This document shows, piece by piece, positions 146 to 60,106 of a stretch of DNA of 64,000 nt; position 1 is the first letter of the stretch; each line of letters opens with the position of its first letter. The stretch is from the IMG/VR virus record IMGVR_UViG_3300026290_000007; one strand, given 5' to 3'. This stretch comes from a virus. Both the position numbers and the translations under genes were made by a program. The notes beneath the pieces are model-generated. The model saw only the letters and a program-made list of their open reading frames with translations. It did no database searches and had not been told where the DNA came from.

Positions 146-736
146 ATGCCTGGAAGACGATTCACAGAAGAAGAACGGAAAACAATACTGGAAGGTTGGT
201 TTGATCCCAAGAACAGAAAAGAGATATGCCAAAAGCTACAACGTACAGAAGGTACTTGTGCGTTTGAATACTACAGGATGCTTAGAAAGCGTGGGATATC
301 TCCCGCTGAATACAAGAAAAGTCTGCTTGATCAAAGTGTAATTCAGAGAGTCCAAGAGAATTCCAAAGCCGATAACAAAGATTTTCTTGTGTTGCAACTG
401 GAGAATCTTATAACTCTTATAAAACAAAAAGAACCTGTTAATATACAGGTTCTTTTACAGGAGAACTTAGTCCTGAAGAGCAAAGTTGCGAGCTTAGAAA
501 CAAAGCTCAATGAAGTGCAGTCTACGCTTAAAAGCGAAAGAGAGGCATATCAGAAAACCTACAAGGAACTCGACTACTGGCTCAATCAATACTTTAACTT
601 GACTAGCATCGAGAAACTGGCTAGCCTTAAAGATTTCCTTCCTAGGGTCAAAACAGTTGTCGATAAATACGGCACCGTGGTGGGCCTAGTAAAAGAAGGA
701 GATCTTCATCCGATGCTCAAGGTATCAACTAGCTGA
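146..736 (+). CDS. hypothetical coiled-coil protein, possible DNA-binding regulator
   Basis: 196-aa ORF with ATG start and AGGAGG 8 nt upstream. Basic helical N-terminus (RRFTEEERKTILEGW, Myb/SANT-like flavour) is followed by a long heptad-rich region. No family recognised. The 3' end overlaps the convergent 725..1435 gene by 12 nt. Confidence 0.6.
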   Translation: MPGRRFTEEERKTILEGWFDPKNRKEICQKLQRTEGTCAFEYYRMLRKRGISPAEYKKSLLDQSVIQRVQENSKADNKDFLVLQLENLITLIKQKEPVNIQVLLQENLVLKSKVASLETKLNEVQSTLKSEREAYQKTYKELDYWLNQYFNLTSIEKLASLKDFLPRVKTVVDKYGTVVGLVKEGDLHPMLKVSTS

Positions 737-1517: not shown

Positions 1518-1587
1518 GGGCACTATCCCCTTTGTCCAAGACAAAGGTGCCCAATAGAAAAGCCAGGGTCGGGTCACCCTGGCTTTT
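1518..1587 (-). terminator. tandem rho-independent terminators ending the long minus-strand transcription unit
   Basis: Hairpin 1 (1558-1587): AAAAGCCAGGGT / ACCCTGGCTTTT around a 6-nt loop that contains the stop codon of 1574..2302; a T-run follows on the minus strand and A/T runs flank both sides. Hairpin 2 (1518-1552): GGGCA-CCTTTGTC-ttg-GACAAAGG-(bulge)-TGCCC, followed by a U-rich stretch. Confidence 0.55.
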
Positions 1588-2302
1588 TAAATGTAGCTAA
1601 CTGAGCTAAGTTCATAATGTGATCACAACATACAGACGTGTTTGCCCATATGGTAAATCTCTTAGCTTTAGCGTCTTCGCAGAATGTTATGTCTTCACCT
1701 TGACGATGGTATCCATACCTTACTCCAGCTTCTAATACTCTCCTAGATATGAGATAAACTGCCCCCGTAACATCGCACTTAAATAGAGAGTTCTTTGGAA
1801 AATCAAAATAATGTCTTATAGTACCAGCTTTGTTCTTCATGAGTATATTAGGATATCTTTTGGAAGCATCATTCCATATTTGTGCTGCAACAATATCTTT
1901 ATCTGATTTCAAAAGTTCATTAAGAGTCTCAGGTTGAACCAATATATCAGAGTCAACACTAAACAGGTAATCTGCTCGTGAACGCAACGCGGTGTCTAAG
2001 AACTTGTTCCTAACAATCGATAGCGTATGATAGATTTTTTCTCGAACGTAATGAGTACGCTCATCTGGGATTTGTCCTTGGTTACAGTGCACAACAATTG
2101 TTGAGCTGTATTCTTCTCCATATTCTGCAAGCCATTTATTAATGATGCTTTCTGAAGCATCTCTTGAATCGTTAATCACGAAACAAAGAATGATCTTTTT
2201 TTTATCATAGTTAAGATTATAGATGTGTTCCAGATAAGTTGGTAGTATCCATGCCCTATCTCTGACGGGTGCCCCCACCATAACTGTAGGTGTCTTATCC
2301 AT
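1574..2302 (-). CDS. GT-A fold glycosyltransferase (Anp1/Mnn9-like or GT2-like)
   Basis: 242 aa. N-terminal 'VMVGAPVRDRAWILPTYLEH...CFVINDSRD', DxD-type 'SVDSDI', C-terminal 'GEDITFCEDAK'. No TM segment. ATG start. Confidence 0.65.
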   Translation of the reverse strand: MDKTPTVMVGAPVRDRAWILPTYLEHIYNLNYDKKKIILCFVINDSRDASESIINKWLAEYGEEYSSTIVVHCNQGQIPDERTHYVREKIYHTLSIVRNKFLDTALRSRADYLFSVDSDILVQPETLNELLKSDKDIVAAQIWNDASKRYPNILMKNKAGTIRHYFDFPKNSLFKCDVTGAVYLISRRVLEAGVRYGYHRQGEDITFCEDAKAKRFTIWANTSVCCDHIMNLAQLATFKKPG

Positions 2303-2304
2303 AT

Positions 2305-3411
2305 TTAAGCAGCTCCACTTTTAAGATATTCTAGCACAAAATCTATAATTTTCTCGCTAGCATGTCCATCCCCATAGGGACTTACTGCCTTAGCCATTTG
2401 TTCATACTGAAATGTATTAGTAAGCAAACGGGCTGCCGTTAGGCCAAAGGCCATAGGGTGGCACAATCTCGCAACCCCTGCTTTAATTCCCTCTGTTCTC
2501 TCTGTGCTTTCGCGTATAACAATAACAGGTTTTCCAAGCGAAGGAGCCTCTTCTTGTATTCCTCCAGAGTCAGTAATAACTAACTTACATCGCGCCATTA
2601 CATGGGTTAATTGTCGATAATTCATAGGAGTAGTGAGCATTATCTTAGAGTGATTGGATAATTTCCTATATACCATCTCTTTTACGTTTGGATTCGGATG
2701 TACAGGGAAAACAATATAACACCCAGTACTTCTAACTAAATCTAATATCTCATTACATATCTGTTCTATATACTTGAAGTTTTCGCGCCTGTGCGCCGTA
2801 ACTAAAACAATGTCGCCCTTTACGCCGTCAACAGGACAGACTTCTGAGTCAGATGAAGTATTGACAACATCAAGAAATGCATCTATACCGGTATTGCCAG
2901 TAACAACAATAGTTTTTTCGGGAATTCCTTCTTTGATAAGGTTGTCGCGCGACTCTATTGTTGGAGCAAAATGATGCATTGCTAATGGGGATATCATTCT
3001 CCTGTGAGCTTCCTCTGGGAAAGGATCATAACGATACGTCCTAAGACCGGCTTCAACATGTCCAATCGGAATGTTTCTATAAAATCCAGCCAATGCTCCG
3101 AAAAATGCTGAAGAAGTATCTCCCTGTACCAAAATATAGTCAGGTTTTTCTGTCACGATAACGTCATCTAATCTAGTAATAAGTCGTCTCCCAAGCATAG
3201 CAAGGCTTTGGCCATGCATCGTACCTAATACATCAAGGTCGTAATCTGGTTTGATATGGAATACATCAAGAGCAGACTTAAGCATTTCTGATGAATGTTG
3301 CCCAGTGGATACTGTGACCACGCCAATCTTGCGTTTCTTTAGTTCTTTAATAATAGGCGCCATTTTTATTGCCTCTGGCCTTGTGCCAAATACTGCCATT
3401 ATTCTTTTCAT
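2305..3411 (-). CDS. wecB: UDP-N-acetylglucosamine 2-epimerase (non-hydrolysing), WecB/MnaA family
   Basis: Full-length 368 aa with hallmark 'MAVFGTRPEAIKMAPI', 'HVEAGLRT' and 'DSGGIQEEAPSLGKPV'. Confidence 0.92.
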   Translation of the reverse strand: MKRIMAVFGTRPEAIKMAPIIKELKKRKIGVVTVSTGQHSSEMLKSALDVFHIKPDYDLDVLGTMHGQSLAMLGRRLITRLDDVIVTEKPDYILVQGDTSSAFFGALAGFYRNIPIGHVEAGLRTYRYDPFPEEAHRRMISPLAMHHFAPTIESRDNLIKEGIPEKTIVVTGNTGIDAFLDVVNTSSDSEVCPVDGVKGDIVLVTAHRRENFKYIEQICNEILDLVRSTGCYIVFPVHPNPNVKEMVYRKLSNHSKIMLTTPMNYRQLTHVMARCKLVITDSGGIQEEAPSLGKPVIVIRESTERTEGIKAGVARLCHPMAFGLTAARLLTNTFQYEQMAKAVSPYGDGHASEKIIDFVLEYLKSGAA

Positions 3412-3421
3412 TATATGTTAC

Positions 3422-3514
3422 CTACTTGTTTAAGAAGTTCTGCAGTTCTCTCGCCAGACCTTCCTCAATCTCTCCGTACAGTCCGCCAATACGGACAAAG
3501 TTAATAGACTTCAT
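3422..3514 (-). pseudogene. 30-codon relic resembling the N-terminus of the TagF-like paralogs (or a tiny ORF)
   Basis: Minus-strand ORF MKSINFVRIGGLYGEIEEGLARELQNFLNK in the otherwise unexplained 105-nt gap. Compare 'MKPINFVMKNTGAFY' (3517..4431) and 'VKKINLLAVGGPYEKI' (5671..6543). GAGGAA lies upstream. Confidence 0.25.
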
Positions 3515-3516
3515 GC

Positions 3517-4431
3517 TTAAATGCTTCCTCCCGCTAGTTTTAGTAGCATGCTGGCACTTTCTTTTCCAGATTTACCTCGTAATTTTTGTGGGAAAATATC
3601 TTCTATGAAATCTTGTGTTGTCTTATCTATGCCTTTCTTGTATGCCAACCTAACAAGTTCACATAGATCCTTCATGTTTGTTGCATGGTAACCGATTTTA
3701 TTTTTATATATATAATCTTCGAAAGAATTGTTATAAGTTTTCTGTATGTAGTCTTTAACAAGCCAATCTGGAAAAACAACAGGCTTGCCTAAAGACCATG
3801 CTTCATAAATGATGCTACTACAATCGCTAATTACAACATCTGCATTTGCTAATCCTTGTAGCGTAACTACACCTTTAGCGTTAGCTGGATGCAAAGATGT
3901 TATGGTTTTAAACTCTTTAGGCATATTTCCAAGTAGTTGCATAAAGTTAGGATAAGCTGATGCACCTTTCCTGCTAGTCCATCCTGGTAAGTTATGTGTG
4001 GGTGCATATAACACAACAGGCTTATCGCTGCTTTCCTTAACAATCTCTCCTTGAAAAATAGGGTCTAGTTTTGTATATCCAACAACTAGAATTTTGCTTT
4101 TATTTAACCCTTGGCGGATCATTTTGTTTACCCACGATGGTCCTGAAACACAAACGTAGTCAAATACTTTTACTTTACTAGCGTTTCTCCAATTCTTATC
4201 TGCTATCCCATGAGAAATAAAAACATTTGTACCCGTCACATTGATCTTCTTGAAATAATTTATGGGGTCTAAAAAGAAATGCACATTAATTGCATTCTTC
4301 ATGCAATCGTTCGTTTCATAAAACTCAGGCAGGTATTTTTCGATAGGATCAATTAAGCTTCTAACTACACCTAGGTAGAATGCGCCTGTGTTCTTCATAA
4401 CGAAATTAATAGGCTTCATCTGGCTATACAC
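3517..4431 (-). CDS. CDP-polyol:polyol-phosphate transferase, TagB/TagF family (minimal catalytic domain)
   Basis: 'ISHGIADKNW', 'YAPTHNLPGW', 'SLHPANAKG' and 'DCSSIIYEAWSLGKPVV' fit the Glyphos_transf pattern. 304 aa, no TM. The track start is GTG at 4431; ATG at 4419 (MKPINF) is more likely given the paralog N-termini. Confidence 0.78.
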   Translation of the reverse strand: MYSQMKPINFVMKNTGAFYLGVVRSLIDPIEKYLPEFYETNDCMKNAINVHFFLDPINYFKKINVTGTNVFISHGIADKNWRNASKVKVFDYVCVSGPSWVNKMIRQGLNKSKILVVGYTKLDPIFQGEIVKESSDKPVVLYAPTHNLPGWTSRKGASAYPNFMQLLGNMPKEFKTITSLHPANAKGVVTLQGLANADVVISDCSSIIYEAWSLGKPVVFPDWLVKDYIQKTYNNSFEDYIYKNKIGYHATNMKDLCELVRLAYKKGIDKTTQDFIEDIFPQKLRGKSGKESASMLLKLAGGSI

Positions 4432-5050
4432 CTCTTACTCTGATGTTTTGACCATCAATCAAATCACCGTTGTCAACTAGAAAGGAAACTATATCTGCTA
4501 CATCTTCAGGTTGCATGATACTTGTTTGATCTTCATCTGGAGCGAGCTTCTTCCTAAGTGCAGTAGCACACCTTCCAGGAGAAAGACAATATACTTTGAT
4601 ACCATAAGGACTTAGTTCCTCTGACATTGTTGCAGAAAAATTAATCACGGCTGCCTTGGCTGCAGCATACGCACTCCAACCAGGTTGCGCCCTCATTCCT
4701 GCGGTAGAAGCAATATTGATAATCTTACCTCCGACGTTCTTAGCATGTTTGACAAATTCACGCGTGCAAAAGAACGTACCGCTTAGATTGGTATTAATGG
4801 TTTGATACCATTCCTCGTCTGTTATTTCAAGCAACCCTTTTGGCTCTACGAATCCTGCACAATTAACAAGCACCGACGGAATTCCGTGAAACTTGACTAT
4901 CTCGCTGAATAAGAAACTTACATCCCAAGGACTGGTTACATCAAACCCAGCTGATCTTGATAAGTTCCACACTTGATGTGTCTCTGACAATTTTTTAGAT
5001 ATAGCAAGACCTATGCCGCTACTGCCTCCTGTTACAACCGCTATCTCCAT
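4424..5050 (-). CDS. short-chain dehydrogenase/reductase (classical SDR); candidate pentulose-5-P reductase
   Basis: 'VVTGGSSGIGLA' (TGxxxGxG), 'NCAG', and catalytic 'S...YAAAKAA' (YxxxK). The ATG start lies 32 nt inside the preceding cytidylyltransferase gene. Confidence 0.85.
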   Translation of the reverse strand: MEIAVVTGGSSGIGLAISKKLSETHQVWNLSRSAGFDVTSPWDVSFLFSEIVKFHGIPSVLVNCAGFVEPKGLLEITDEEWYQTINTNLSGTFFCTREFVKHAKNVGGKIINIASTAGMRAQPGWSAYAAAKAAVINFSATMSEELSPYGIKVYCLSPGRCATALRKKLAPDEDQTSIMQPEDVADIVSFLVDNGDLIDGQNIRVRGV

Positions 5051-5678
5051 AAAGAATCGCCTCCGCTAATCTGAAGTCCAATGGTGTTGTTATTTTAATG
5101 TTATGCTCTAGTCCTTTTATAACTGCAGGTGAAATCCCGAATACATCTTTGAGTAAACTTGAATCATCAGTATAAGTCTTGTCAGCTAAAAAGTGTGCTC
5201 CAGACAATATTCTTCTGTCGAACACTTGTGGAAGTTGTACATTAAATACTGTATCCCGCGAAGGGAACAGTTCCGACGATGTATCATACAATGTAAAGTT
5301 CAAACTTTCAATTGGAATTACTGCTGTGTCGTCTATCGACAATAGTTCGCGCACATGTTCCTTTGTTATAAAAGGTCTAACAGCTTCGTGAATTATGACT
5401 CGGTCTGTTTGGCAATAAACAAGAGCATTCTTAACAGATTCTTGTCTGGTGTCTCCGCCTTCGATAACGACTGCCTTTGATATTTTATATTGATCAATAT
5501 ATGTCTGTACTCTATTGTCCCTAGACGCAACAATAATCCGCGATATCTCTTCCATAGACTCAAACAATTCTAATGGATAAACCACAATAGGTTTGCCGCC
5601 CAACAGGTAAAACTGTTTTGGATATGATAGCCCCGATCTCAAGCCTAATCCTGCAGCAAGTAAAATAACATCAAACAT
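5019..5678 (-). CDS. IspD/TarI-family cytidylyltransferase (polyol-phosphate cytidylyltransferase)
   Basis: 'VILLAAGLGLRSGLSYPKQF' matches the IspD/TarI signature (AAGxGxR...PKQ). 219 aa. The ATG start overlaps the stop of the upstream TagF-like gene (ATGTTTGA). Confidence 0.87.
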   Translation of the reverse strand: MFDVILLAAGLGLRSGLSYPKQFYLLGGKPIVVYPLELFESMEEISRIIVASRDNRVQTYIDQYKISKAVVIEGGDTRQESVKNALVYCQTDRVIIHEAVRPFITKEHVRELLSIDDTAVIPIESLNFTLYDTSSELFPSRDTVFNVQLPQVFDRRILSGAHFLADKTYTDDSSLLKDVFGISPAVIKGLEHNIKITTPLDFRLAEAILYGDSGCNRRQ

Positions 5679-6543
5679 TTGCTATACTCCTTAGAAGTGA
5701 AGCAGTCTCTGCTCCAGATTTGCCTCTCAAAGAAGAAGGTAATATACCTTCCATGAACTTGGTAACAGCAGGAGAAAGAGAATTTCTTAAGCCGTACGTT
5801 ATCATTCTCATTAGTTCGCTTTCGTTGTTGGCATGCAGGCCGAGCCTGCCATTGAATACTTGAGATTCAAGGCTGGATCCTCTGACCAAACTGGGCCTTA
5901 ATAGCCATGAAGGGAATACTACTTGTTTACCTAAAGCCCATGCTTCATATAATGTACTTCCAGAGTCCGCCACAACAACGTCGGCATTTACTAACTTTTG
6001 CAAGGTCGGTTCATGATTATCGCTGTTAGCTGGATGCAGGGAAGTAAGAACCTCATACCCCTTCTTGGTGAGCATCTCAAAAAATCTAGCAAGGTGAGGA
6101 TAACTAGACATTTTAGGATTGGAATTGTGGGTAGGTGCCCACAGTATTCTTTTTTTGGCCGAGGGTGTTTTAACAATCTTACTTTGAAATATAGGATCAA
6201 GCTTTGCATATCCGTTAACTAGAATTTTGTTTCTAGGGATGCCGTCTTTCAGCATTTTATCTACCCATGTTGGCCCAGACACACAAACATAGTCAAATCT
6301 TGATACGCTGCGTCCATCTCTATATCTCTTATCTGCTATACCGTGAGACATAAAAACCATAGTTCCAGTTTCTCTATACAACCAATTTTCTACAAAGAAA
6401 GTAACATTGATTGCATCAGGCTCAGGAACAGTAGTCACGGTCGCTTCTGGCAAATGTTCTAAGATTGGATTAATCATGCTTTTGATTATCTTTTCATACG
6501 GCCCACCGACAGCAAGCAAGTTTATTTTTTTCACAGTGCTCAC
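5671..6543 (-). CDS. CDP-polyol:polyol-phosphate transferase, TagB/TagF family (second paralog)
   Basis: 'MSHGIADKRY', 'WAPTHNS', 'SLHPANS' and 'DSGSTLYEAWALGKQVV', collinear with 3517..4431. The track start is GTG at 6543 with GAGGA abutting it. GTG at 6534 (MKKINLL) has better SD spacing. Confidence 0.78.
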   Translation of the reverse strand: MSTVKKINLLAVGGPYEKIIKSMINPILEHLPEATVTTVPEPDAINVTFFVENWLYRETGTMVFMSHGIADKRYRDGRSVSRFDYVCVSGPTWVDKMLKDGIPRNKILVNGYAKLDPIFQSKIVKTPSAKKRILWAPTHNSNPKMSSYPHLARFFEMLTKKGYEVLTSLHPANSDNHEPTLQKLVNADVVVADSGSTLYEAWALGKQVVFPSWLLRPSLVRGSSLESQVFNGRLGLHANNESELMRMITYGLRNSLSPAVTKFMEGILPSSLRGKSGAETASLLRSIANV

Positions 6544-6546
6544 TCC

Positions 6547-7194
6547 TCATAGTCCACTTTGCTTCACTAGGTTTGTCACCGTAGTATGCATGTAGTTGTT
6601 TGTTTGACTTACAACAACATTGCCCACTCTCTTTTCAGGCGATAAGACAGCTAAAGCAAGACCCCCTACGTATGTATTTCTAAAGAGATCTCCAGTTACA
6701 AAGTCTGTTTCAATTTTATGTACATGTGGATTGCCATTCCAGTCGGCATCCACAAAGGCTTGCCTGGTTTCTGGATACCACGAATCATGTCCCATAATTA
6801 TCATGTCATGGTTTACATGTAACTTAAGCAGGTTATTAATATCTGCCAATACTGTTTTATAAGAATGATCTCCATCAACCATTGCGAAATCAACACATAC
6901 ACCGTTGGTATTTAACTCGGATACCAAAGCTGGCAATGTCTCTTTGGAATCGCCTTCAATCCATTTAGCATTTGGATATAAAGACTTGTCAAGGTTTGAA
7001 TGGTTTATATCTAAAGAATACACTGTATCAAAATTTCGGCATAAAACTCTAAGGAACCCACCCTTGTAGCTTCCAATTTCTATTGCTACTTTCTTCCTGG
7101 GAATCTTGTTAAATAAATAGAAGATTGTCATCCTCTCAGCAAAGCTCATCTGCCATAATATATCTTGCGTAAAGATCTCATTTATATCTATCAT
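6547..7194 (-). CDS. class I SAM-dependent methyltransferase (CmcI/Methyltransf_24-like, sugar O-methyltransferase type)
   Basis: 'VAIEIGSYKGG' (motif I), 'SLDIN', and 'FAMVDGDHSY' typical of the CmcI-like family. I prefer ATG 7194, which forms an ATGA overlap with the upstream stop. The track's TTG at 7236 would add 14 aa. Confidence 0.72.
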   Translation of the reverse strand: MIDINEIFTQDILWQMSFAERMTIFYLFNKIPRKKVAIEIGSYKGGFLRVLCRNFDTVYSLDINHSNLDKSLYPNAKWIEGDSKETLPALVSELNTNGVCVDFAMVDGDHSYKTVLADINNLLKLHVNHDMIIMGHDSWYPETRQAFVDADWNGNPHVHKIETDFVTGDLFRNTYVGGLALAVLSPEKRVGNVVVSQTNNYMHTTVTNLVKQSGL

Positions 7195-7841
7195 TGAACC
7201 CTTATCCTTTCCTGAATCCGTGTACCTGGAAGCCAACTTCCAGCAAACATATGATAAGTGTAAGCTTCTGGAGTCACTATAGGTTGTAGCTTGGCATGGT
7301 TAAAACTGCAAAAGGTACTTACTGGAAATATGACAACTCCGTCCTGCAAGTAAATTCTACCGTTCTCTTTTTTAATCATTAAAGGCCAAGAAAGGTCTGT
7401 GATCAGTTTGGTATTTGGCGATACACGATGCGGATCAAAATCGGTACTATCATAGTAGTCAAGCATTGTCTTTACCCATGGGTGCCCAAGTTCGCTACCC
7501 ATGGTGGCGGTAACCCAAAGCTTTTCTGTCTCACATCCAGTAAATGCCCGAAGCGATAAAAACCCATCTAAGGGTTTAACCACTTCTACGTCAGAGTCTA
7601 GATAGATTCCTCCTTCGTTGTACAGCGCCCACATTCTTAGATAATCAGTTACAAATGCAAACTTCTTGGCATCGTATGCTTTTTTAGCATATGGATGAGC
7701 ACTAAGATCAAAGTTCTTTTCGTTCCACTCTTTAAATACATACCCGCGGAGGTGTCTTGACCAGCTACTTATGCATCTCTGTATCAATGGAGACTTTGGA
7801 GCTGAACCGAACCAGCAAGTATGAACGATTTTAGGAATCAT
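7191..7841 (-). CDS. GT32-type glycosyltransferase (DXD sugar-binding region, Och1/capsular type)
   Basis: 'IPKIVHTCWFG', 'FVTDYLRMWALYNEGGIYLDSDVE' (DxD). 216 aa. ATGA overlap with the upstream gene. Confidence 0.8.
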   Translation of the reverse strand: MIPKIVHTCWFGSAPKSPLIQRCISSWSRHLRGYVFKEWNEKNFDLSAHPYAKKAYDAKKFAFVTDYLRMWALYNEGGIYLDSDVEVVKPLDGFLSLRAFTGCETEKLWVTATMGSELGHPWVKTMLDYYDSTDFDPHRVSPNTKLITDLSWPLMIKKENGRIYLQDGVVIFPVSTFCSFNHAKLQPIVTPEAYTYHMFAGSWLPGTRIQERIRVQ

Positions 7842-8629
7842 CTGACCACTCTCCTATATTCATCAGCCCATTTGTTCCAGATCTGATAGAAGGGAGCTTT
7901 AGTGCTACCAGTCCACGGTTTAGTTTCTTTAGATCCAGCAAAGTGCATTATCTTTATATCCTCTGGCTTGATACCAAGTCCTGTAGATAAAGATACGTTA
8001 TATGCAAGGTCTACTGTCTTTACCCTGCCTTTGCATGTCATGTTTATGACGTCCTGATCATGACAGCCATAAAGCTTGGCATTTATTTCTTTTAGCCATG
8101 TGTCACATAAGCTGAGATTTCTTATCTCTTTCCAGTTAAAAAGCATTACGCCTGCGTTGAGGTATGGATCTTTTTCTGTAAGACCTATGTTGTATAACAT
8201 ATATTTGTATTGTGGTAAATATATTCCACTATCAATTACTCCTGCAATCAAGTTATCTTCAAGATCCATATTAAAGAAATCGGACAGATTCCCATTGACT
8301 ATTGCATCCGCATCGATATAAAGAATTCTATCGTCTGTAATTATCTTGGGTAGTACTAGTCGATATAGGGTATATTTTGTAAACCGCCCGTCAACATTAA
8401 CGGTACTTGGAACAAACTCATTATACAGTTTTTCTACATTTAAGTATATATACTCATAGCCTTCACCGAAGGTTTTTTGAACTTTGGAAAATTCATTCAA
8501 AGTAGATTCACTGAGGAGATCAGAAACCAAGTACACCTTGACAGGCGCAGGATTGTTTTTGAATATCGCGTATAACTCAACTGCTACTGCTTTTGCCCAG
8601 TCTTCGCTAAACACCAATACAATGTTCAT
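7838..8629 (-). CDS. GT8-family retaining glycosyltransferase (RfaJ/LgtC/GspA-like)
   Basis: 'YIDADAIV' (DxD), 'LNAGVMLFN', 'HDQDVIN' and 'MHFAGSKETKPW' are classic GT8 blocks. Confidence 0.87.
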   Translation of the reverse strand: MNIVLVFSEDWAKAVAVELYAIFKNNPAPVKVYLVSDLLSESTLNEFSKVQKTFGEGYEYIYLNVEKLYNEFVPSTVNVDGRFTKYTLYRLVLPKIITDDRILYIDADAIVNGNLSDFFNMDLEDNLIAGVIDSGIYLPQYKYMLYNIGLTEKDPYLNAGVMLFNWKEIRNLSLCDTWLKEINAKLYGCHDQDVINMTCKGRVKTVDLAYNVSLSTGLGIKPEDIKIMHFAGSKETKPWTGSTKAPFYQIWNKWADEYRRVVR

Positions 8630-8631
8630 TA

Positions 8632-9033
8632 TTATTTCTCCTTGCTGCGTAGTGTATCTTTTCTGCCTGACTTAACAATCCTCATTTTTATGTACTCAAC
8701 AGAAAGCTCTTTGGTGTAATCGATACATATAAGAGTAATACCAAGCTTCTTACAGAGTTCTTTTTTGAGACGGTCACAAGTCTTCAGATATTCAAATTGT
8801 TTTTTGTTTTTGAAGAAAAACTTGGAGTACCTGCTATGTTGTTTGCCCTGATGCTCAAAGGCAATCTTGAGATCTGGATAGTAAATGTCTAATTGGAGGG
8901 GCTGTTTCTTGGGGCTGACAAGAAAAGAATAGTAACCATTTCTAATATAATATTCTCCAGGATAGATTTTCTCTAAGATTTTGAATAGTCTACCTTCTCT
9001 GACGGGTTTAACTCTTTTGCTCATTGGCTTCAC
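8632..9033 (-). CDS. DUF559/Vsr-like restriction-endonuclease-fold protein
   Basis: 'LQLDIYYPDLKIAFEHQGKQH' fits the D...(h)E-x-(D/Q)-G-x-x-H pattern of Vsr/DUF559-type nucleases. Track start is GTG at 9033; ATG at 9024 is an alternative. Weak call. Confidence 0.45.
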   Translation of the reverse strand: MKPMSKRVKPVREGRLFKILEKIYPGEYYIRNGYYSFLVSPKKQPLQLDIYYPDLKIAFEHQGKQHSRYSKFFFKNKKQFEYLKTCDRLKKELCKKLGITLICIDYTKELSVEYIKMRIVKSGRKDTLRSKEK

Positions 9034-9811
9034 TCAACAATCCAAGCTGCCTTGCTTTAATCATTACCTTCTCTACAGCAGCTCGTCGTTTCAGCCATAT
9101 CGAATTTCTATGAAAGCCTAGCTTGTTAGCAATTTCTGTTTCGGTCATGTTGTCAAGATAATATAGTTTAAGTATTAACCTTTCGAGAGGAAGAAGATCT
9201 TCAAACGGATCGCCACAAGTGAGCCCATAAATCCAACTATTGCTGAGTTCTTCTGTGTTGTTAGACGCTAATTTTTCATCAAGATTAACTACGTTACATG
9301 ATGATTTTGCTACCGTCTTAAATAGTTCATCATCAAAATCTCCGATGACTGCAGTGCTTATAGGGTTTTGTAATACTTTCTTAACAAGTCTTGATACTTC
9401 GTAAGGAAACGAAGCCGCAATATATGCGCAAAATCCTTTGTCTACTTTGTACTTATGTACAGACTTTAGAAATATAACAATAAAGTCATGATATAGATCT
9501 TCTTCAAATATTTGATTATGTGCACTGTTAATTATGTATAATGCCTTATATGCAACTTCTCTGGTTTTCTTTGATTGGAAATGTCTTTTGAGACCCGCTC
9601 TGACTTTTTGGTCAGCAATGAACAAACTTATAAAATGACGGGATTCATAGTCACTGAAATCAAGCACTCCCTTTTTGATGATCTTGATGTATTTGTTGAA
9701 CAACGGAGCAAACATTTCTATGAGCTGGTTGCCTGCTTCTTCACATTCTCCGCCCTGATATCGCTTCACTAGGTTTTCAATTTGTTCATAGCGCTCTTCT
9801 GAAAAGATCAT
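9008..9811 (-). CDS. phage-encoded sigma-70-family RNA polymerase sigma factor
   Basis: Region-2-like N-half ('LVKRYQGGECEEAGNQLIEMFAPLFNKY', 'DLYHDFIVIFLKSVHKY'). Region 4.2 HTH 'LERLILKLYYLDNMTETEIANKLGFHRNSIWLKRRAAVEKV'. Confidence 0.75.
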   Translation of the reverse strand: MIFSEERYEQIENLVKRYQGGECEEAGNQLIEMFAPLFNKYIKIIKKGVLDFSDYESRHFISLFIADQKVRAGLKRHFQSKKTREVAYKALYIINSAHNQIFEEDLYHDFIVIFLKSVHKYKVDKGFCAYIAASFPYEVSRLVKKVLQNPISTAVIGDFDDELFKTVAKSSCNVVNLDEKLASNNTEELSNSWIYGLTCGDPFEDLLPLERLILKLYYLDNMTETEIANKLGFHRNSIWLKRRAAVEKVMIKARQLGLLSEANEQKS

Positions 9812-10107
9812 GACTCGTCATCCTCTTCGTCGTCTTCGTCGATAAACTCTTCATCATCTTCCAGTAACTGTAAACCCTCAAGTAAACCTTCGATATCCAA
9901 CTCTTCATCGTCGTCACAAATCTCGTCTTCTACAACAAACCCAAGATTCTTTTCTCTAAATCTATTTCTGTCGTTTTCTGTATTGCTCACATAGACCGAA
10001 TATAAGGTGCCCACTACTTTTTCAAGGAGTTGTTCATCTACTAGCCTCTTTAGGTCTTCGACGCTATCTACCCTGAAACCTACGTTATGAATATGGAACT
10101 CAATCAT
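9808..10107 (-). CDS. hypothetical protein with hyper-acidic C-terminal tail
   Basis: 99 aa. The last ~45 residues are mostly D/E ('DDDEELDIEGLLEGLQLLEDDEEFIDEDDEEDDES'). ATGA overlaps at both ends, with ruvC upstream and the sigma factor downstream. Confidence 0.6.
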   Translation of the reverse strand: MIEFHIHNVGFRVDSVEDLKRLVDEQLLEKVVGTLYSVYVSNTENDRNRFREKNLGFVVEDEICDDDEELDIEGLLEGLQLLEDDEEFIDEDDEEDDES

Positions 10108-10598
10108 GATGCTTCCTCCTCTTGAAAGAAGAAGGCTAAGCCTATAGATATTGCATCCGACACATCTTCTGGAAGATCGCCCTCCAGATTGAGTCTTTCT
10201 TTTATGGCTGCTTTAACTTCTGACTTAGATGCGTTGCCCTTTTTTGCTTTCTTCTTTGCCGTCTTATTGTTGATAACAATTAGTTCCTTTTTCCTCTGTT
10301 CGGCAAGAAGCATAATAACGCCCCGTGCCCAAGACAAAGCCTTGATTGTATTTACATTAGATCCCAAAAACTGATCCTCAACTGCAACAGCATCAACTTC
10401 ATTTGCCTCCATAATATCTATTAGCGCATCGTATAGATCCTTGAGGCGACGCGATGTTGGTCTTGAAGCAGGAGAATGGATAAGGCCACGCGACAAAACT
10501 TTAAGATCGCGTGTTACTACTGCGAAACCTGTGTTTACGGTTGCTGCATCTAGCGCAAGTATAGTGTTTATGATTTTAGGCAATCTCTTCTTCGGCAT
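10104..10598 (-). CDS. ruvC: RuvC-like Holliday junction resolvase
   Basis: 'ILALDAATVNTGFAVV' (first catalytic D), 'AVAVEDQF' (E), C-terminal 'DVSDAISIGLAFF' (D..D). 164 aa. Confidence 0.8.
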   Translation of the reverse strand: MPKKRLPKIINTILALDAATVNTGFAVVTRDLKVLSRGLIHSPASRPTSRRLKDLYDALIDIMEANEVDAVAVEDQFLGSNVNTIKALSWARGVIMLLAEQRKKELIVINNKTAKKKAKKGNASKSEVKAAIKERLNLEGDLPEDVSDAISIGLAFFFQEEEAS

Positions 10599-11151
10599 TG
10601 TAAGTCCATCCTTTGTACGATTTGTATTTGCCAGAAATAAGCCGATACAGACAGCCTCTGTCTATTTTGTTTTCTCTACAAAACCTAGCAATGTTTGTAA
10701 TTACAATAGGATCGCCACTAGGATCTCGAAATCCGTGATAACTACTCCAGTGCGTAGCCTTACCTTTATGAGATTCCGACAATCTTTGTTTAGTTAGCTC
10801 AGAGAGTGGCGGATATTTCCTGCCCTTCGGACTTGGTGGTTTTGCAGCTACAGGATTAATGTTATAACCTCGGGTTAGATTACAACAATCTAGCATATCG
10901 ATCCACCACTGCTCTCTCGTCAAAAGTACGCTCTCATTACATACAACTTCAAGTATACTGAATACAAACGCAGCTGGATTTTTGTTCCAGCTACGTTGTA
11001 AATGTAGAGAATGGTGCTTTCCAGTATTTAGATCAGACCGATGATTTTTCCACCGATGCCTGATGTCTGAAGCACTTCCAATATAAACTTTGCCGTTAAG
11101 AGTATTTTCAATACAATATATTCCTGATACCTTACTCTTCTTCCTTGTCAT
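10576..11151 (-). CDS. free-standing GIY-YIG homing endonuclease (Seg-like) with NUMOD-type DNA-binding tail
   Basis: 'GIYCIENTLNGKVYIGSASDIRHRWKNHRSDL' (GIY-x10-YIG...R...H). 'GRKYPPLSELTKQRLSESHKG' is NUMOD3-like. C-terminal 'FCRENKIDRGCLYRLISGKYKSYKGW'. The 3' end overlaps the ruvC start by 23 nt. Confidence 0.87.
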   Translation of the reverse strand: MTRKKSKVSGIYCIENTLNGKVYIGSASDIRHRWKNHRSDLNTGKHHSLHLQRSWNKNPAAFVFSILEVVCNESVLLTREQWWIDMLDCCNLTRGYNINPVAAKPPSPKGRKYPPLSELTKQRLSESHKGKATHWSSYHGFRDPSGDPIVITNIARFCRENKIDRGCLYRLISGKYKSYKGWTYNAEEEIA

Positions 11152-12356: not shown

Positions 12357-12905
12357 TTACACTATTGCAATTGGATTAAAAACAATTATCCGTTTTTTGA
12401 TAGTGTCATTGATAAATTCCTGATTGAAATCGCCGTATGCATATTCTACTGCAGTGTTTCTAGGATGAATATTTGTATTTTGTCGATCTGTGTCGTAAGC
12501 CCAAACTAATAGCTGTGCGCTATGATGACAAGCGTTATGTAGATCTGTATAATGACTATCGCTTGCAAAATTGAAATGTATATACCTTTGTTCAGGCGAA
12601 ATACAGTCAAGGATGTTCTGGGTTCCCTGAATTACAGTAGATATTAAACGGTCTTTGTCATATGTATCGATACAGTTGATAATGTGGGTAGCGTCAGCTA
12701 CTGCTAGCTCGACAAAGTAAATGTCTTCGACGCTACCCAAGTAGAAGTTGAAGCGGGAATTGCTATGAAGATACCTAAGTTTTTCCATAGAGCCTGTAGA
12801 CAGATTGTCTATAGCTGTGACGTGCGCATCTGGGAATTCATCTAGTATGAACTTAGATACTTCGCTGCCAACATTGCCAGCTCCACCAAATATAGCTACC
12901 TTCAT
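12357..12905 (-). CDS. NAD(P)-binding Rossmann protein, truncated/degenerate extended-SDR (sugar epimerase/dehydratase-like)
   Basis: 'MKVAIFGGAGNVGSEV...AIDNLSTGSMEKL' resembles GalE/RmlB N-termini. It is only 182 aa, and no YxxxK is visible after 'FASDSHY'. Confidence 0.6.
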   Translation of the reverse strand: MKVAIFGGAGNVGSEVSKFILDEFPDAHVTAIDNLSTGSMEKLRYLHSNSRFNFYLGSVEDIYFVELAVADATHIINCIDTYDKDRLISTVIQGTQNILDCISPEQRYIHFNFASDSHYTDLHNACHHSAQLLVWAYDTDRQNTNIHPRNTAVEYAYGDFNQEFINDTIKKRIIVFNPIAIV

Positions 12906-12918
12906 AGCTTACTCCTCC

Positions 12919-13254
12919 TTAGCCTTCTACGGTCGCAATAATATCCTTTTCATGTAGCACAAGATACTTAGTGCCATCTATTGTGATATCAAAACCTGCA
13001 TACCTTGGGAACACTACTGTTTTTCCTACCGAGATCTCTGGGTTTACTGGCCGTTTAACGAATGTCCTGACAACATTATCGCCCTCAAGTTTATACCTTT
13101 CAGTATAGACACCGTCACCGACCCCTACTACTTTACCAAAGATACCAGTTAATTGCTGCTTTTTTCTAAACTCTTCTGGAATATAGAATGATCCGATTTT
13201 TTCCTCTGCTTCTTGAACCTCAACAATAACCTGCGCACCTTTAAGTTGAATCAT
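12919..13254 (-). CDS. groES: GroES/Cpn10-like co-chaperonin
   Basis: 111 aa. 'LKGAQVIVEVQEAEEKIGSFYIPEE...GKVVGVGDG...GKTVVFPRYAGFDITIDGTKYLVLHEKDIIATVE' follows the GroES beta-barrel and mobile-loop pattern. Confidence 0.78.
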   Translation of the reverse strand: MIQLKGAQVIVEVQEAEEKIGSFYIPEEFRKKQQLTGIFGKVVGVGDGVYTERYKLEGDNVVRTFVKRPVNPEISVGKTVVFPRYAGFDITIDGTKYLVLHEKDIIATVEG

Positions 13255-18408: not shown

Positions 18409-19170
18409 TTATGCATCAATTTGTGCATGGACTAAGCCGATATTGAAATCTTTTTCCAAATCGATATCTAGGCCGTGAACTCTGCCACTACCATTGGCAA
18501 TACAAATCTTCCTCGATTTGACATCAGCCACAAATTTTGGATTGGACGCTTCGGCACGTCTGACAGCGAGGATCTTCATCTTCTCTATCTCTAGTTGATT
18601 ACAAGATATCCGTGGTTCGAGTTTGGATAGATCGTCGTTGTATCTATCAATAACTGAATGGTAAATGGTTCCACATTGCACACAGATATCGAAACATAAA
18701 GCAAAAGCCCTCTCTGACCAGAAATTAAATTGCTTAAAATATCTTAGAGCATTATCAAAATAAGGTTTGCTTGCTTCCATTTGGTATTGTTGACATTCTG
18801 TTGTGCGACCGAGTTCTTTAAATTGAGTTTGCCACTCTTTTTTTAGAGATCTCTTAGATGTACCAACCGATATAGAATCAGCCCAAGCAATCTGACGAGC
18901 AGTAGATATTGGTCTTGAAATGTCTTTTAGTTCTTGGTAGTTATCACCAAATATGTCTTTCATGAGACTGTCGTGGCTAGTAAACATTTTTCGCAACATA
19001 GGTTGCAAAGTTCCACTCTTCATATTGAACTGCAAAACTCCAAAGCTCATGCCCGCTCCGTCAAAGTTCCCAGTAACACCTGCAAAACATTCTGGAGGTA
19101 ATTCACTGGTCTCGTAGGTTCCAGTCAAAGCTAAAACCCTGAGCTTAAGTTCTTGTTCTTTAATAGACAT
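18409..19170 (-). CDS. endolysin, GH46 (chitosanase)-like lysozyme-fold glycoside hydrolase
   Basis: 'LTGTYETSE...GNFDGAGMSFGVLQFN' and 'CQQYQMEASKPYFDNALRYF...FALCFDICVQCG' resemble the catalytic Glu/Asp blocks and the ...D..VQ.G block of GH46 chitosanases (from memory). It is about 250 aa and collinear with the C-terminus of the hub protein (60109-60882). No signal peptide. It sits next to the holins. Confidence 0.65.
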   Translation of the reverse strand: MSIKEQELKLRVLALTGTYETSELPPECFAGVTGNFDGAGMSFGVLQFNMKSGTLQPMLRKMFTSHDSLMKDIFGDNYQELKDISRPISTARQIAWADSISVGTSKRSLKKEWQTQFKELGRTTECQQYQMEASKPYFDNALRYFKQFNFWSERAFALCFDICVQCGTIYHSVIDRYNDDLSKLEPRISCNQLEIEKMKILAVRRAEASNPKFVADVKSRKICIANGSGRVHGLDIDLEKDFNIGLVHAQIDA

Positions 19171-19222: not shown

Positions 19223-19795
19223 TTATCTGATTGCCAATGGGATTGAAGCATATACTCTAGTTTCAAATTCGCCAGACTTGAAACTAACTGTTTCTTCTAT
19301 CCCAACGTGGATTCCTCGGTAGACATTGTACGATATACCGAGACCTGCCTTATCCAGATAAATAACTCCGTCAATAGAAAACTTTTTGTACTGGAATATT
19401 TCGTATCCTATTCCGATATCTTCGACATCACATACAAGTTTGAATTTATACTCAGGCTCCTTTACCACAACAGTTGTTGGTATTTCTACCGTAATTGTTC
19501 CATCATCGTTTGGTGTAACAGTAGCTGTTCCATCATTAGTAGTTGTTGTTCCGTCTGGTGAAGTAATATTAGTAGGGACAGTTGTGGGAGTAGTAATGTT
19601 AGGCGGAATTACAACCGTATGAACAATGGTTGTAGATGTGTCTCCTGGAGATACGGTATCTGGATCTGGATTAATAATAATTTGATGAGGCGGTGCATCA
19701 TGACTTCCGCTAGGCGTTTTAGGTTGTAGCATGTGACCTGCAAATAAGAAACAGGTCACTAATGCTACAAGAAGAATCTTGGACTTTAGTGTCAC
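19223..19795 (-). CDS. membrane-anchored/secreted protein with Thr/Pro-rich linker and beta-rich C-domain
   Basis: N-terminal 'KSKILLVALVTCFLFAG' (signal/anchor). 'TTPTTVPTNITSPDGTTTTNDGTATVTP'. C-terminal alternating beta pattern. GTG start. Confidence 0.55.
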   Translation of the reverse strand: MTLKSKILLVALVTCFLFAGHMLQPKTPSGSHDAPPHQIIINPDPDTVSPGDTSTTIVHTVVIPPNITTPTTVPTNITSPDGTTTTNDGTATVTPNDDGTITVEIPTTVVVKEPEYKFKLVCDVEDIGIGYEIFQYKKFSIDGVIYLDKAGLGISYNVYRGIHVGIEETVSFKSGEFETRVYASIPLAIR

Positions 19796-38891: not shown

Positions 38892-38902
38892 TGTAATTTC
38901 TC

Positions 38903-40621: not shown

Positions 40622-40634
40622 AGCAACTCTCCCC

Positions 40635-59749: not shown

Positions 59750-60106
59750 TTATATACCTCCTGATATCTTTGTCGTGTAAGTCCCAGCGATTCGTTCGAC
59801 ATAATTTTGCTTAGGAATGGTACACGCAACCACTGGAGCGTTTGAGCTTCCATTTAGAAAACATATTAACACGAAGTCTCCAATGCTAACAGTGCCATGG
59901 ACATTCCCCATTTTACTAACATCAACTTCGTCTAGATCAACAACGTTTCCATTGGTAGGATCAACATACTGAATAGACACTCGTCTAGTGTCCTCATTGT
60001 AATAGGTGATACTCCCCAGAGTTGGGAGTATTTGATTCGTCAATCTTCTTACCTCTGGGGATTCTTTAACTATCTCATATATTTTTTCGTGTAGTGGGTT
60101 AGCCAT
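59750..60106 (-). CDS. baseplate central spike/OB-fold protein (gpV / XkdR-like)
   Basis: 118 aa. 'GTVSIGDFVLICFLNGSSNAPVVACTI' matches the 'GDxVlv.F..Gd...P.V.g' block of Phage_base_V-type spikes. Confidence 0.55.
   Translation of the reverse strand: MANPLHEKIYEIVKESPEVRRLTNQILPTLGSITYYNEDTRRVSIQYVDPTNGNVVDLDEVDVSKMGNVHGTVSIGDFVLICFLNGSSNAPVVACTIPKQNYVERIAGTYTTKISGGI

Follow-up and report, generated by a model that had tools for sequence, protein, structure and literature searches.

A predicted polyol-phosphate glycan cassette in a jumbo phage and the recurrent viral module at its core

Nine consecutive genes of a jumbo phage encode a predicted pathway for a teichoic-acid-like glycan. The cassette occupies positions 1574–8629 on the minus strand of IMG/VR virus record IMGVR_UViG_3300026290_000007, of which a stretch of 64,000 nucleotides (the window) was analysed. 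The products are glycosyltransferases (GTs) of the GT8, GT32-like and GT-A types, a methyltransferase, a cytidylyltransferase of the IspD/TarI family, a classical short-chain dehydrogenase/reductase (SDR), a WecB/MnaA-type epimerase and two minimal TagF-like proteins (mini-TagF A and B). IspD, SDR and mini-TagF together constitute a recurrent viral module that is newly recognized. Both TagF-type enzymes and glycosylation cassettes of phages have been described before; what is new is to find them combined, together with virus-encoded synthesis of a cytidine diphosphate (CDP)-polyol. Judged by family membership and conserved synteny, the pathway is likely to yield a CDP-polyol and uridine diphosphate (UDP)-N-acetylmannosamine (ManNAc), and to build a methylated polyol-phosphate glycan in the cytoplasm. 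The usual place of the module beside capsid or tail genes suggests that phages coat their own particles with polyol-phosphate glycan. The favoured acceptor for the window cassette is one or more virion proteins, decorated in the cytoplasm with the methylated glycan. This reading draws on the genomic context of relatives and is given a probability of roughly 0.45.

Cassette composition and the predicted pathway

The nine genes were described in a first-pass annotation of the window. An open reading frame (ORF) listing and an independent gene caller both recover them (table 1). Neighbouring genes overlap by 4–46 nt or are separated by 2–3 nt, as the annotation had it, with the sole exception of a 105-nt gap (3412–3516) between mini-TagF B and WecB. 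The small ORF within this gap aligns locally to the N-termini of the mini-TagF family with a score of 55 (shuffled sequences 27 ± 3.9; 0 of 300 as high) and looks like the deletion scar of a third mini-TagF paralogue. Families were assigned by Pfam and NCBIfam profile searches and phage genes by PHROG. The GT8, GT32 DXD, SDR, WecB and GT-A assignments all find profile matches.

Three enzymes are predicted to supply activated donors. The 219-residue cytidylyltransferase, proposed earlier as an IspD/TarI-family member, matches PF01128 far above the threshold of 27 bits, and the AAGxGxR...PKQ and KITTPxD motifs are readable in its translation. It reaches no NCBIfam cutoff at the equivalog or subfamily level (IspD 156.6 < 181.3; ribitol-5-phosphate 101.8 < 166). 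Its sequence matches in the PDB include IspD (5ddt, 1e-26), TarI (6xhp, 7e-21) and human ISPD (4CVH, 4.6e-8). Because it lies below all these cutoffs and matches IspD and TarI structures alike, no substrate can be assigned. PF01128 enzymes paired with reductases make CDP-ribitol and CDP-glucitol (CDP-fructose/glucitol), and CDP-mannitol is predicted (PMC10918830). The window protein is predicted to be a CDP-polyol synthase, and the SDR a ketose-phosphate or CDP-ketose reductase supplying the polyol. WecB matches TIGR00236 over its full length (396.4 bits, cutoff 210.15), and by this profile WecB/MnaA is the predicted supplier of UDP-ManNAc. Many apparent phage matches for IspD and WecB were rejected as bacterial contamination in UNVERIFIED records.

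The mini-TagF proteins are predicted to be CDP-polyol:acceptor polyol-phosphate transferases. Both had been placed in PF04464 as proteins of 290–304 residues. Mini-TagF B exceeds the gathering score of 22.1 bits; mini-TagF A falls below it but shares 44% identity with B along the full length. An AlphaFold2 (AF2) model of mini-TagF B, computed from a 37-member family alignment, has a mean per-residue confidence (pLDDT) of 93 and a two-Rossmann, GT-B-like TagF fold. Its top PDB folds are TagF (3L7I; E 8e-12, query TM-score (TMq) 0.60–0.62), TarL (8VA1) and the capsule polymerase Cps3D (8QOY); UDP-N-acetylglucosamine (GlcNAc) 2-epimerases rank lower. The protein is some 100 residues shorter than the TagF catalytic fragment, and the target TM-score is 0.47. 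The family profile also matches TarL and Cps3D by sequence. Against Staphylococcus aureus TarL, hhalign gives a probability of 96% across the nucleotide-binding domain, in which the APT(H), HP and D-x-SS-x2-YE motifs are kept; the S. aureus TarL and TarF sequences came from one UNVERIFIED 'phage' record (bacterial contamination). Residues P144-T145, H181-P182, D203, S206 and E210 are invariant across the 37 members. Also invariant is H74-G75-x3-K79, directly after a beta-strand, which lies outside the hhalign and HMMER alignments and was read by motif inspection; its spacing is that of TarF W-H-G-T-P-L-K and is comparable to TarL V-W-H300-A. H74 is thereby a candidate for the N-terminal catalytic histidine (H300 in TarL, H444 in TagF; W-H-G/A motif). 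The family has 267 database relatives. Neither of the two mini-TagFs nor the IspD protein is represented by a PHROGs family, and a BFVD fold search with mini-TagF returned generic GT-B proteins only, with no close structural counterpart.

The glycosyltransferases are tied to the mini-TagFs by gene fusions found in two other viral loci, L015 and L010. A 722-residue fusion joins Anp1-like GT-A, GT8 and GT32 domains (L015:7811–9979), a 537-residue fusion joins GT8 and GT32 (L010:6639–8252), and each adjoins a mini-TagF gene. These fusions place GT-A, GT8 and GT32 in one pathway together with mini-TagF. The window GT-A has an invariant DxD motif (S115-D117-D119). The closest PDB fold to its AF2 model (pLDDT 96) is human COLGALT1 (E 1.6e-18, TMq 0.79), followed by LH3, Mnn9 of yeast and R699 of mimivirus; TarP comes only at about 1e-9. 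Collagen-like repeats were sought as a COLGALT1-type acceptor and none were found. GT8 matches among phages reach only about 25% identity and lie mostly in host-contaminated or fragmentary records. The methyltransferase had been labelled CmcI-like. The methyltransferase assignment stands on PF13578, and the CmcI label has only weak matches behind it: a weak rhamnosyl O-methyltransferase match and the weak RMNT_CmcI match of the L010 orthologue. The enzyme is probably a sugar O-methyltransferase, to judge by these sequence matches. A tblastn search with it against phages gave no match, it has no sequence relative in the PDB, and the O-methyltransferase of Thermobifida phage P1312 shows no detectable similarity to it.

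The proposed mechanism has the following steps. (i) The IspD-type enzyme and the SDR would produce a CDP-polyol. The simplest guess is CDP-ribitol, although CDP-arabinitol, CDP-glucitol and CDP-mannitol are equally allowed. (ii) WecB would provide UDP-ManNAc. (iii) The GT-A, GT8 and GT32-like transferases would assemble a short glycan. (iv) The two mini-TagFs would insert polyol-phosphate units taken from the CDP-polyol. (v) The methyltransferase would cap a sugar by O-methylation. (vi) The acceptor would be a soluble cytoplasmic substrate, most likely virion protein (capsid, tail tube or fibre). (vii) Progeny particles would then bear a teichoic-acid-like polyol-phosphate glycan, leading to shielding, changed adsorption or stabilization. 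A lipid primer, flippase and ligase would be dispensable, since the glycan would be assembled and attached at the site of virion assembly.

Membrane partners for such a pathway are lacking in the sequence covered. Every 19-residue Kyte–Doolittle window stays below 1.6 in all nine proteins, in agreement with the transmembrane (TM) helices reported absent by the first-pass annotation. The 64-kb window, in which holin-like proteins are the only polytopic ORFs, and the 10 kb beyond it hold no polytopic primer of the TagO/WecA type. TagA (GT26), TagGH and LCP have no Pfam or PHROG match among the scanned window ORFs or in L106, a locus reaching past window position 1. The earlier claim that primer, TagA, exporter and LCP are absent is upheld for the window and the 10 kb beyond, and is limited to them. 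The biochemical core of that annotation (CDP-polyol synthesis, TagF-type transfer, UDP-ManNAc supply and several glycosyltransferases, the cassette itself encoding neither primer nor exporter) gains support from profiles, structure and synteny.

The core module in viruses and cells

A pattern scan of IMG/VR for mini-TagF found at least 83 loci. Eighty were kept, and neighbourhoods were counted over 77 viral loci, whose viral status is the IMG/VR call supported by their structural genes; neighbouring ORFs were clustered and the cluster representatives annotated. About 35 of the 77 carry IspD, SDR and mini-TagF in the same order and on the same strand, in the order of window positions 5678 to 3517, the SDR always after IspD and before mini-TagF. 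In about 33 loci, mostly on 55–61-kb contigs, the triplet lies downstream of Phage_min_cap2 and, on the same strand, four to six genes upstream of a set of genes for the head scaffold, major head protein, head–tail adaptor, tail chaperone and tape measure. An ORF with three or more hydrophobic or TM segments is present within eight same-strand genes of mini-TagF in just two of the 77 viral loci.

The head-operon island often includes further genes: PseB-like dehydratase, aminotransferase, GNAT, NeuB, CMP-sugar synthetase, GT29-like, methyltransferase and GT32-like. Near-complete nonulosonic-acid pathways of the pseudaminic or legionaminic type, with a GT29-like transferase, are found between Phage_min_cap2 and the scaffold gene on 55–61-kb phage contigs (examples in table 1). 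The major head proteins encoded beside the triplet (loci L018–L089; e.g. L086:11868–12863 and L037:14839–15840) end in a C-terminal serine that is invariant in 33 of 33 and preceded by four to five variable residues (...RYPFAVLGxxGS, ...GEAAS, ...EEAS). This serine could be a modification site, or mere family conservation.

Other placements are found as well. In L010, which has counterparts of six of the nine window genes at 44–57% identity, a tail-tube gene (YomU_Tube) is followed by mini-TagF (57% identical to the window protein), the methyltransferase (44%), a sulfotransferase, IspD (47%), an HNH gene, SDR (55%), a GT, and the GT8+GT32 fusion (45% for each part). In L015, tail-fibre and endolysin genes precede the triple fusion (55% in its GT8 part) and a mini-TagF 58% identical to A. 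L007 has a GT4 gene and mini-TagF between those for the large terminase and portal. In Thermobifida phage P1312, tail genes are followed by those for an O-methyltransferase and a TagF-like protein. The archaeal Methanobacterium virus PhiF1 carries a GT-A homologue immediately upstream of its capsid genes.

One locus, L009, corresponds to the window locus itself. Its acidic-protein, sigma-like and HNH-like genes are 53–82% identical to those of the window, the latter two preceding a variant cassette in which a different 378-residue GT is followed by IspD (51%), SDR (68%) and a mini-TagF B that is 96% identical. The variant shows the locus to be a glycan island whose core is conserved and whose other genes vary. 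Searches with the sigma-like protein found no relatives in IMG/VR or metagenomes, which leaves L009 as the only close relative seen. The third mini-TagF, of which an apparent remnant is left, and the homing endonucleases nearby are consistent with a locus still being remodelled. With nine genes, two TagF paralogues and one remnant, the window holds the richest version of the cassette seen.

The first-pass annotation had held that a complete donor-synthesis and transfer pathway in such a phage would be new. This needs amendment in one respect: uncultured phages carry the core module widely, so the window cassette is no isolated case and belongs to a class not described before. Full-text searches found no account of such a phage module in the literature covered. 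To our knowledge, phage virion glycosylation has been known only in a handful of actinobacteriophages, with plain sugars. It is tentatively proposed that the module marks a widespread class of phage systems, in which CDP-polyol of the phage's own making and minimal soluble TagF-type enzymes would put teichoic-acid-like polyol-phosphate glycans directly on virion proteins in the cytoplasm, some lineages adding nonulosonic acids.

A search of cellular genomes with strict patterns gave 12 mini-TagF loci among 185,579 species. The modules there are small and consist of TagF with an NTP-transferase, of TagF with IspD and SDR, or of the series GT-IspD-TagF-TagF-IspD-SDR-TagF-GT, and no TagO, TagA or TagGH lies near them. 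Family members also occur in metagenome-assembled genomes (MAGs) of Proteobacteria, Acidobacteriota and Bacteroidales, groups without wall teichoic acid (WTA). Some cellular modules adjoin spore-associated genes for small acid-soluble spore protein (SASP), spore photoproduct lyase and SleB-type hydrolase. On a 188-kb bacterial contig of a spore-former (L002/L003, ~10001–10903), a lone mini-TagF gene has a gene for a SleB-type cell-wall hydrolase on one side and genes for SASP and spore photoproduct lyase on the other; this setting hints at a role in spore-surface glycosylation.

Nature of the acceptor

A virion-protein acceptor is favoured over the host envelope because the core module lies inside the head or tail operons of many phages and its cellular homologues lie outside WTA loci. 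The first-pass annotation had offered a cytoplasmic acceptor and host lipid-linked intermediates as two options; comparative genomics favours the former and leaves the host envelope viable. The top structural matches of the GT-A model are protein-modifying enzymes, ahead of TarP by nine orders of magnitude in E-value, and this modelled likeness was counted for a virion acceptor. A plausible candidate acceptor site is a 50-residue linker of proline, threonine and acidic residues in the 1174-residue virion protein (29398–32922), ATPYEPATPYEPTTPVDESATPDEDSTTPEEDSTPTTPTTPTTPLEP. The threonine-rich tract at 19223–19795, put forward earlier as a second fibre acceptor, is discarded: its product has an N-terminal hydrophobic anchor and belongs to the lysis cassette, beside a Phage_holin_4_1 holin.

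Precedent for modified virions comes from actinobacteriophages. As summarized in two articles citing Freeman et al. 2023 (PMC11600133, PMC13313380), cassettes of an O-methyltransferase and tandem glycosyltransferases modify capsid and tail-tube proteins there. Like the window cassette, those cassettes are phage-encoded and cytoplasmic and combine a methyltransferase and several GTs with no primer or exporter. Unlike it, they are not known to include CDP-polyol synthesis or a transferase of the TagF type. Their GT and O-methyltransferase genes lie in or near the virion operon, an arrangement matched by L010, L007, L015, the ~33 IMG/VR loci and P1312, whereas the window cassette is not adjacent to virion genes. 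Mammalian ISPD/FKTN/FKRP offers a likeness that is functional analogy only. FKTN and FKRP are not known to have the TagF fold, and alpha-dystroglycan is modified in the Golgi lumen. In the account of PMC4873967, an IspD-family enzyme makes the CDP-polyol, and polyol phosphate is passed to a protein-linked glycan of alpha-dystroglycan.

Several points weigh against a virion acceptor. The window cassette is not beside capsid genes; it follows sigma-like, RuvC and homing-endonuclease genes, and the nearest virion gene lies ~12 kb upstream, though on the same strand. Morons and conversion genes, too, typically adjoin structural or lysis genes, and clusters for DNA glycosylation have likewise been reported near structural genes (bioRxiv 10.1101/2023.12.21.572611). 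The fold likeness of the modelled GT-A to COLGALT1 does not define an acceptor. The alignment of the mini-TagF profile with TarL and TarF by hhalign did not recover the catalytic-histidine segment. About 74 kb of the ~224-kb genome was examined, namely the 64-kb window and 10 kb beyond. The WTA-modifying enzymes TarS, TarM, TarP, TagF and TarL are also without TM helices, so a lipid-linked acceptor is compatible with the absence of such helices from the cassette. Finally, WecB together with TagF-type enzymes is the signature of WTA linkage-unit chemistry.

The last two points bear on remodelling of the host envelope, an explanation regarded as less likely but still plausible. Here the enzymes would act at the inner membrane face on host undecaprenyl-linked WTA or capsule intermediates. 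Host TagO and TagA would prime and host TagGH and LCP would export and attach the product, leading to receptor masking, superinfection exclusion or progeny spared from adsorption to debris. WecB/MnaA, IspD-type CDP-polyol synthesis and TagF-type transfer are cytoplasmic WTA steps, and the canonical enzymes are peripheral, with no TM helices, like the window proteins. Distant kinship of the phage to Bacillus and Moorella jumbo phages makes a Gram-positive, WTA-bearing host plausible, and yet the mini-TagF family extends to the MAGs of WTA-free groups named above. The basic isoelectric points (pI) of the two window mini-TagFs (9.3–9.6) are as expected of membrane-surface enzymes; the family is not uniformly basic (median 7.6), and pI does not discriminate between a membrane-surface and a soluble role of mini-TagF. 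The L015 genes follow the lysis gene, in the classical moron or conversion position, whereas the ~33 loci have the core module inside the head-morphogenesis operon. Cellular mini-TagF homologues outside WTA loci, and the ~100 residues by which mini-TagF falls short of the TagF catalytic fragment, also count against this explanation. No integrase or lysogeny gene was seen within the window, the genome looks lytic, and rewriting a thick wall would probably be slow for one lytic cycle.

Comparison with known envelope systems yields both likenesses and differences. The cytoplasmic WTA pathway of Bacillota (MnaA, TarI/TarJ, TarB/TarF/TarL or TagB/TagF, TarS/TarM/TarP) uses the same families for UDP-ManNAc, CDP-polyol and TagF-fold transfer. 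The window cassette is virus-encoded and has no TagO/TarO, TagA (GT26), TagGH or LCP. Its polyol-phosphate transferases measure ~290 residues against 410–720 in the canonical enzymes, and their partners are GT8, GT32 and Anp1-like GT-A transferases plus a methyltransferase. The reductase is a classical SDR, whereas TarJ of the WTA pathway is of the MDR type; the SDR-type reductase reportedly resembles the Bcs1 arrangement of Haemophilus influenzae. Gram-negative TagF-like capsule polymerases (Cps3D, 8QOY; Cps1B-type, 8A0C) are among the best structural and profile matches, combining TagF-fold and GT domains to make heteropolymers of sugar and polyol phosphate. These are multidomain proteins of more than 1000 residues, encoded in ABC-transporter loci and acting on a lipid-anchored primer, whereas the window cassette encodes minimal proteins as separate units and has no genes for capsule export. 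Prophage tarP of S. aureus is a precedent for a phage-borne teichoic-acid enzyme, and TarP has a GT-A fold distantly like that of the window GT-A. It is a single gene of a temperate phage and only adds GlcNAc to host poly-ribitol-phosphate; the window encodes a complete donor and transfer pathway in a jumbo phage.

Hypermodification of DNA, an option that the first-pass annotation had not considered, is very improbable. On this account, sugars and polyol phosphate would be placed on hydroxymethylated or otherwise activated phage bases for evasion of restriction or CRISPR. Phage GT clusters with epimerases and cytidylyltransferases put mono- to trisaccharides and sugar acids on 5-hydroxymethylcytosine, and no TagF-type enzyme or ribitol is mentioned for these published systems (bioRxiv 10.1101/2023.12.21.572611; PMC13326640). 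Their genes, like those of the window, are GTs with epimerases and cytidylyltransferases of cell-envelope origin, resembling enzymes of WTA and lipopolysaccharide synthesis, and can sit near structural genes. The window cassette, for its part, lies amid DNA-metabolism genes (Cas4-like and PD-(D/E)XK nucleases, RuvC, primase-helicase), and just past the window are weak dNMP-kinase and NUDIX matches, a Dam methylase and a UDG-family gene. The known clusters are, however, defined by an adjacent C5-methyltransferase/5mYOX or hydroxymethylase, and none was found in the window or L106. Among ORFs of at least 150 residues in the window and the 10 kb beyond, there is no thymidylate-synthase-like hydroxymethylase, TET/JBP-type dioxygenase or C5-methyltransferase. 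Glycosyltransferases together with two polyol-phosphate transferases and a methyltransferase also imply a glycan exceeding any known DNA adduct.

Some other acceptor is improbable too: a free or secreted teichoic-acid-like oligomer, or a non-virion protein of phage or host, for instance as a signalling jam or decoy. Stand-alone bacterial modules of TagF, IspD and SDR likewise have no evident acceptor gene, and the window cassette adjoins no single structural gene. There is no exporter in the sequence covered, nothing positive points to any specific alternative target, and the recurrent head-operon placement would be left unexplained.

Should virion proteins be the target, this would be the first known case of protein modification by polyol phosphate in viruses or bacteria and a prokaryotic-virus counterpart of ribitol-phosphate on alpha-dystroglycan. 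It would give phage biology a new post-translational modification, explain how particles might mimic or avoid a teichoic-acid-rich host surface, and bear on immune recognition of therapeutic phages. A host wall target would mean the first complete virus-encoded teichoic-acid-type pathway, and a DNA target a new class of DNA adduct. Whichever the target, the ~290-residue mini-TagFs are attractive minimal catalysts for polyol-phosphate transfer, and Thermobifida phage P1312, with its TagF-like gene, is a cultivable carrier.

Genome context and neighbouring genes

The window is part of a ~224-kb jumbo myovirus genome. Three independent ~224-kb assemblies (a 224,398-bp ENA contig, ERZ795066 NODE_34, and one each in JGI and Logan) concur, and the ENA contig encodes a GT-A 100% identical to that of the window and, by an independent gene caller, the same nine cassette genes. 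G+C content is 0.39–0.40 in the cassette and 0.37–0.43 in the remaining window, GC skew is negative throughout, and the minus strand holds 51 of 53 non-overlapping window ORFs. Phage genes flank the cassette on its own strand, as first annotated. Other phage genes of the window encode a PD-(D/E)XK exonuclease, PhoH, a primase-helicase, and holin and lysis proteins, beyond which lie ~40 kb of baseplate, tail-fibre and virion protein genes. The large virion proteins share ~25% identity with their counterparts in the Bacillus jumbo phages KLEB27-3, WH1, Edson and 0305phi8-36 and in Moorella phage MTATph1, so that, judged by sequence kinship, the host probably belongs to Bacillota. The phage flanks, the concordant assemblies and this distant kinship mark the stretch as genuine jumbo-myovirus DNA. 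Host chromosome or an assembly chimera is ruled out by the three agreeing assemblies, the even composition and the occurrence of the same locus, with a variant cassette, in L009. The cassette and 20 kb of structural genes gave no megablast match among 50,697 GenBank phages.

Table 1. Coordinates of the cassette genes, flanking features and related loci (window positions unless a locus is named).
Feature	Position	Strand	Details
GT8-family retaining glycosyltransferase, first cassette gene	7838..8629	minus	263 aa; PF01501, 118 bits
GT32-like DXD glycosyltransferase	7191..7841	minus	216 aa; PF04488 44.5 bits, PF05704 29.8 bits
S-adenosylmethionine (SAM) methyltransferase	6547..7236	minus	PF13578 Methyltransf_24, 41.7 bits; gene-caller start 7194, 215 aa
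Mini-TagF A	5671..6543	minus	287–290 aa; PF04464 17.9 bits
IspD/TarI-family cytidylyltransferase	5019..5678	minus	219 aa; PF01128, 139.6 bits
Classical SDR	4424..5050	minus	208 aa; PF00106, 140 bits; TGxxxGIG and YxxxK motifs
Mini-TagF B	3517..4431	minus	300–304 aa; PF04464 29.0 bits
Apparent remnant of third mini-TagF N-terminus	3422..3514	minus	30 codons, MKSINFVRIGGLYGEIEEGLARELQNFLNK; in 105-nt gap
WecB/MnaA non-hydrolysing UDP-GlcNAc 2-epimerase	2305..3411	minus	368 aa; TIGR00236 396.4 bits, PF02350 342 bits
GT-A glycosyltransferase, Anp1/GT62- and COLGALT1-like	1574..2302	minus	242 aa; PF03452 Anp1 64.7 bits
Intrinsic terminator hairpin over GT-A stop codon	1558..1587	minus	12-bp GC-rich stem and U-tract
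Cas4-type exonuclease	725–1435	minus	downstream flank of cassette
HNH/homing-endonuclease-like protein	8632–9033	minus	PHROG HNH match 5e-14
Sigma-like factor	9008–9811	minus	PHROG sigma-factor match 2e-8; Pfam sigma region 4 under gathering score
Sigma-like protein and RuvC	9008–10598	minus	upstream flank, same strand as cassette
GIY-YIG homing endonuclease	10576–11151		near cassette
Nonulosonic-acid pathway examples	L037:256–1206, L049:3965–5050, L030:4336–4896, L082:5144–5809, L050:3412–4077, L062:6610–7377		

The cassette closes a long operon on the minus strand at its 3' end, as indicated by the lack of upstream intergenic space, the terminator at the GT-A stop codon and a promoter-like element belonging to the downstream Cas4-like gene. 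There is zero intergenic space between the sigma-like, HNH-like and GT8 genes, and the first two (8632..9811) are probably co-transcribed with the cassette. The hairpin over the GT-A stop codon has a folding free energy (dG) of -21.5 kcal/mol (z -3.5; 0 of 200 shuffles equally stable). A TTGACT-17-AATAAT element and a ribosome-binding site belong to the Cas4-like gene itself. A pattern scan gave 31 sigma-70 promoter-like sites, fewer than the shuffle mean of 40.7 (s.d. 6.1), and 10 terminator-like sites against 9.1; this terminator scan overlooked the hairpin after GT-A. A second strong terminator hairpin, with a 12-bp stem, lies at 427–456 (minus) inside a convergent plus-strand ORF (146–736; 196 residues, no family match) and marks where the long array of minus-strand genes ends.

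Genes of homing-endonuclease type flank the cassette, with the HNH-like gene directly upstream and the GIY-YIG gene nearby; in L010 an RRXRR HNH gene (L010:4291–4944) lies between IspD and SDR. These genes may help cassette mobility. Outside the cassette, a 182-residue protein (12357–12905, minus) has an N-terminal GxxGxxG Rossmann motif and weak matches, all sub-threshold, to NAD-dependent sugar epimerases/dehydratases; it could be a sugar-nucleotide enzyme that is truncated or divergent. The neighbouring gene at 12919–13254 (minus) encodes a GroES/Cpn10 co-chaperonin (PF00166, 50.9 bits).

Past window position 1, L106:12454–20729 is a divergently transcribed early block with a weak T4-gp1-like dNMP-kinase match and a weak NUDIX match, together with PDDEXK_11, a Dam-type methylase (MethyltransfD12), a UDG-family gene and Phage_ABA_S. 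In the lysis region, a 253-residue protein (18409–19170, minus) shares phrog_30036 with the C-terminus of a 1222-residue virion protein (60106–63774, minus), which has an endolysin-type domain too. Three neighbouring large tail proteins of 727, 572 and 742 residues (36708–42863, minus) have repeated phrog_17517/16348 domains in common, by which they are assigned as a paralogous array of tail-fibre or receptor-binding proteins.

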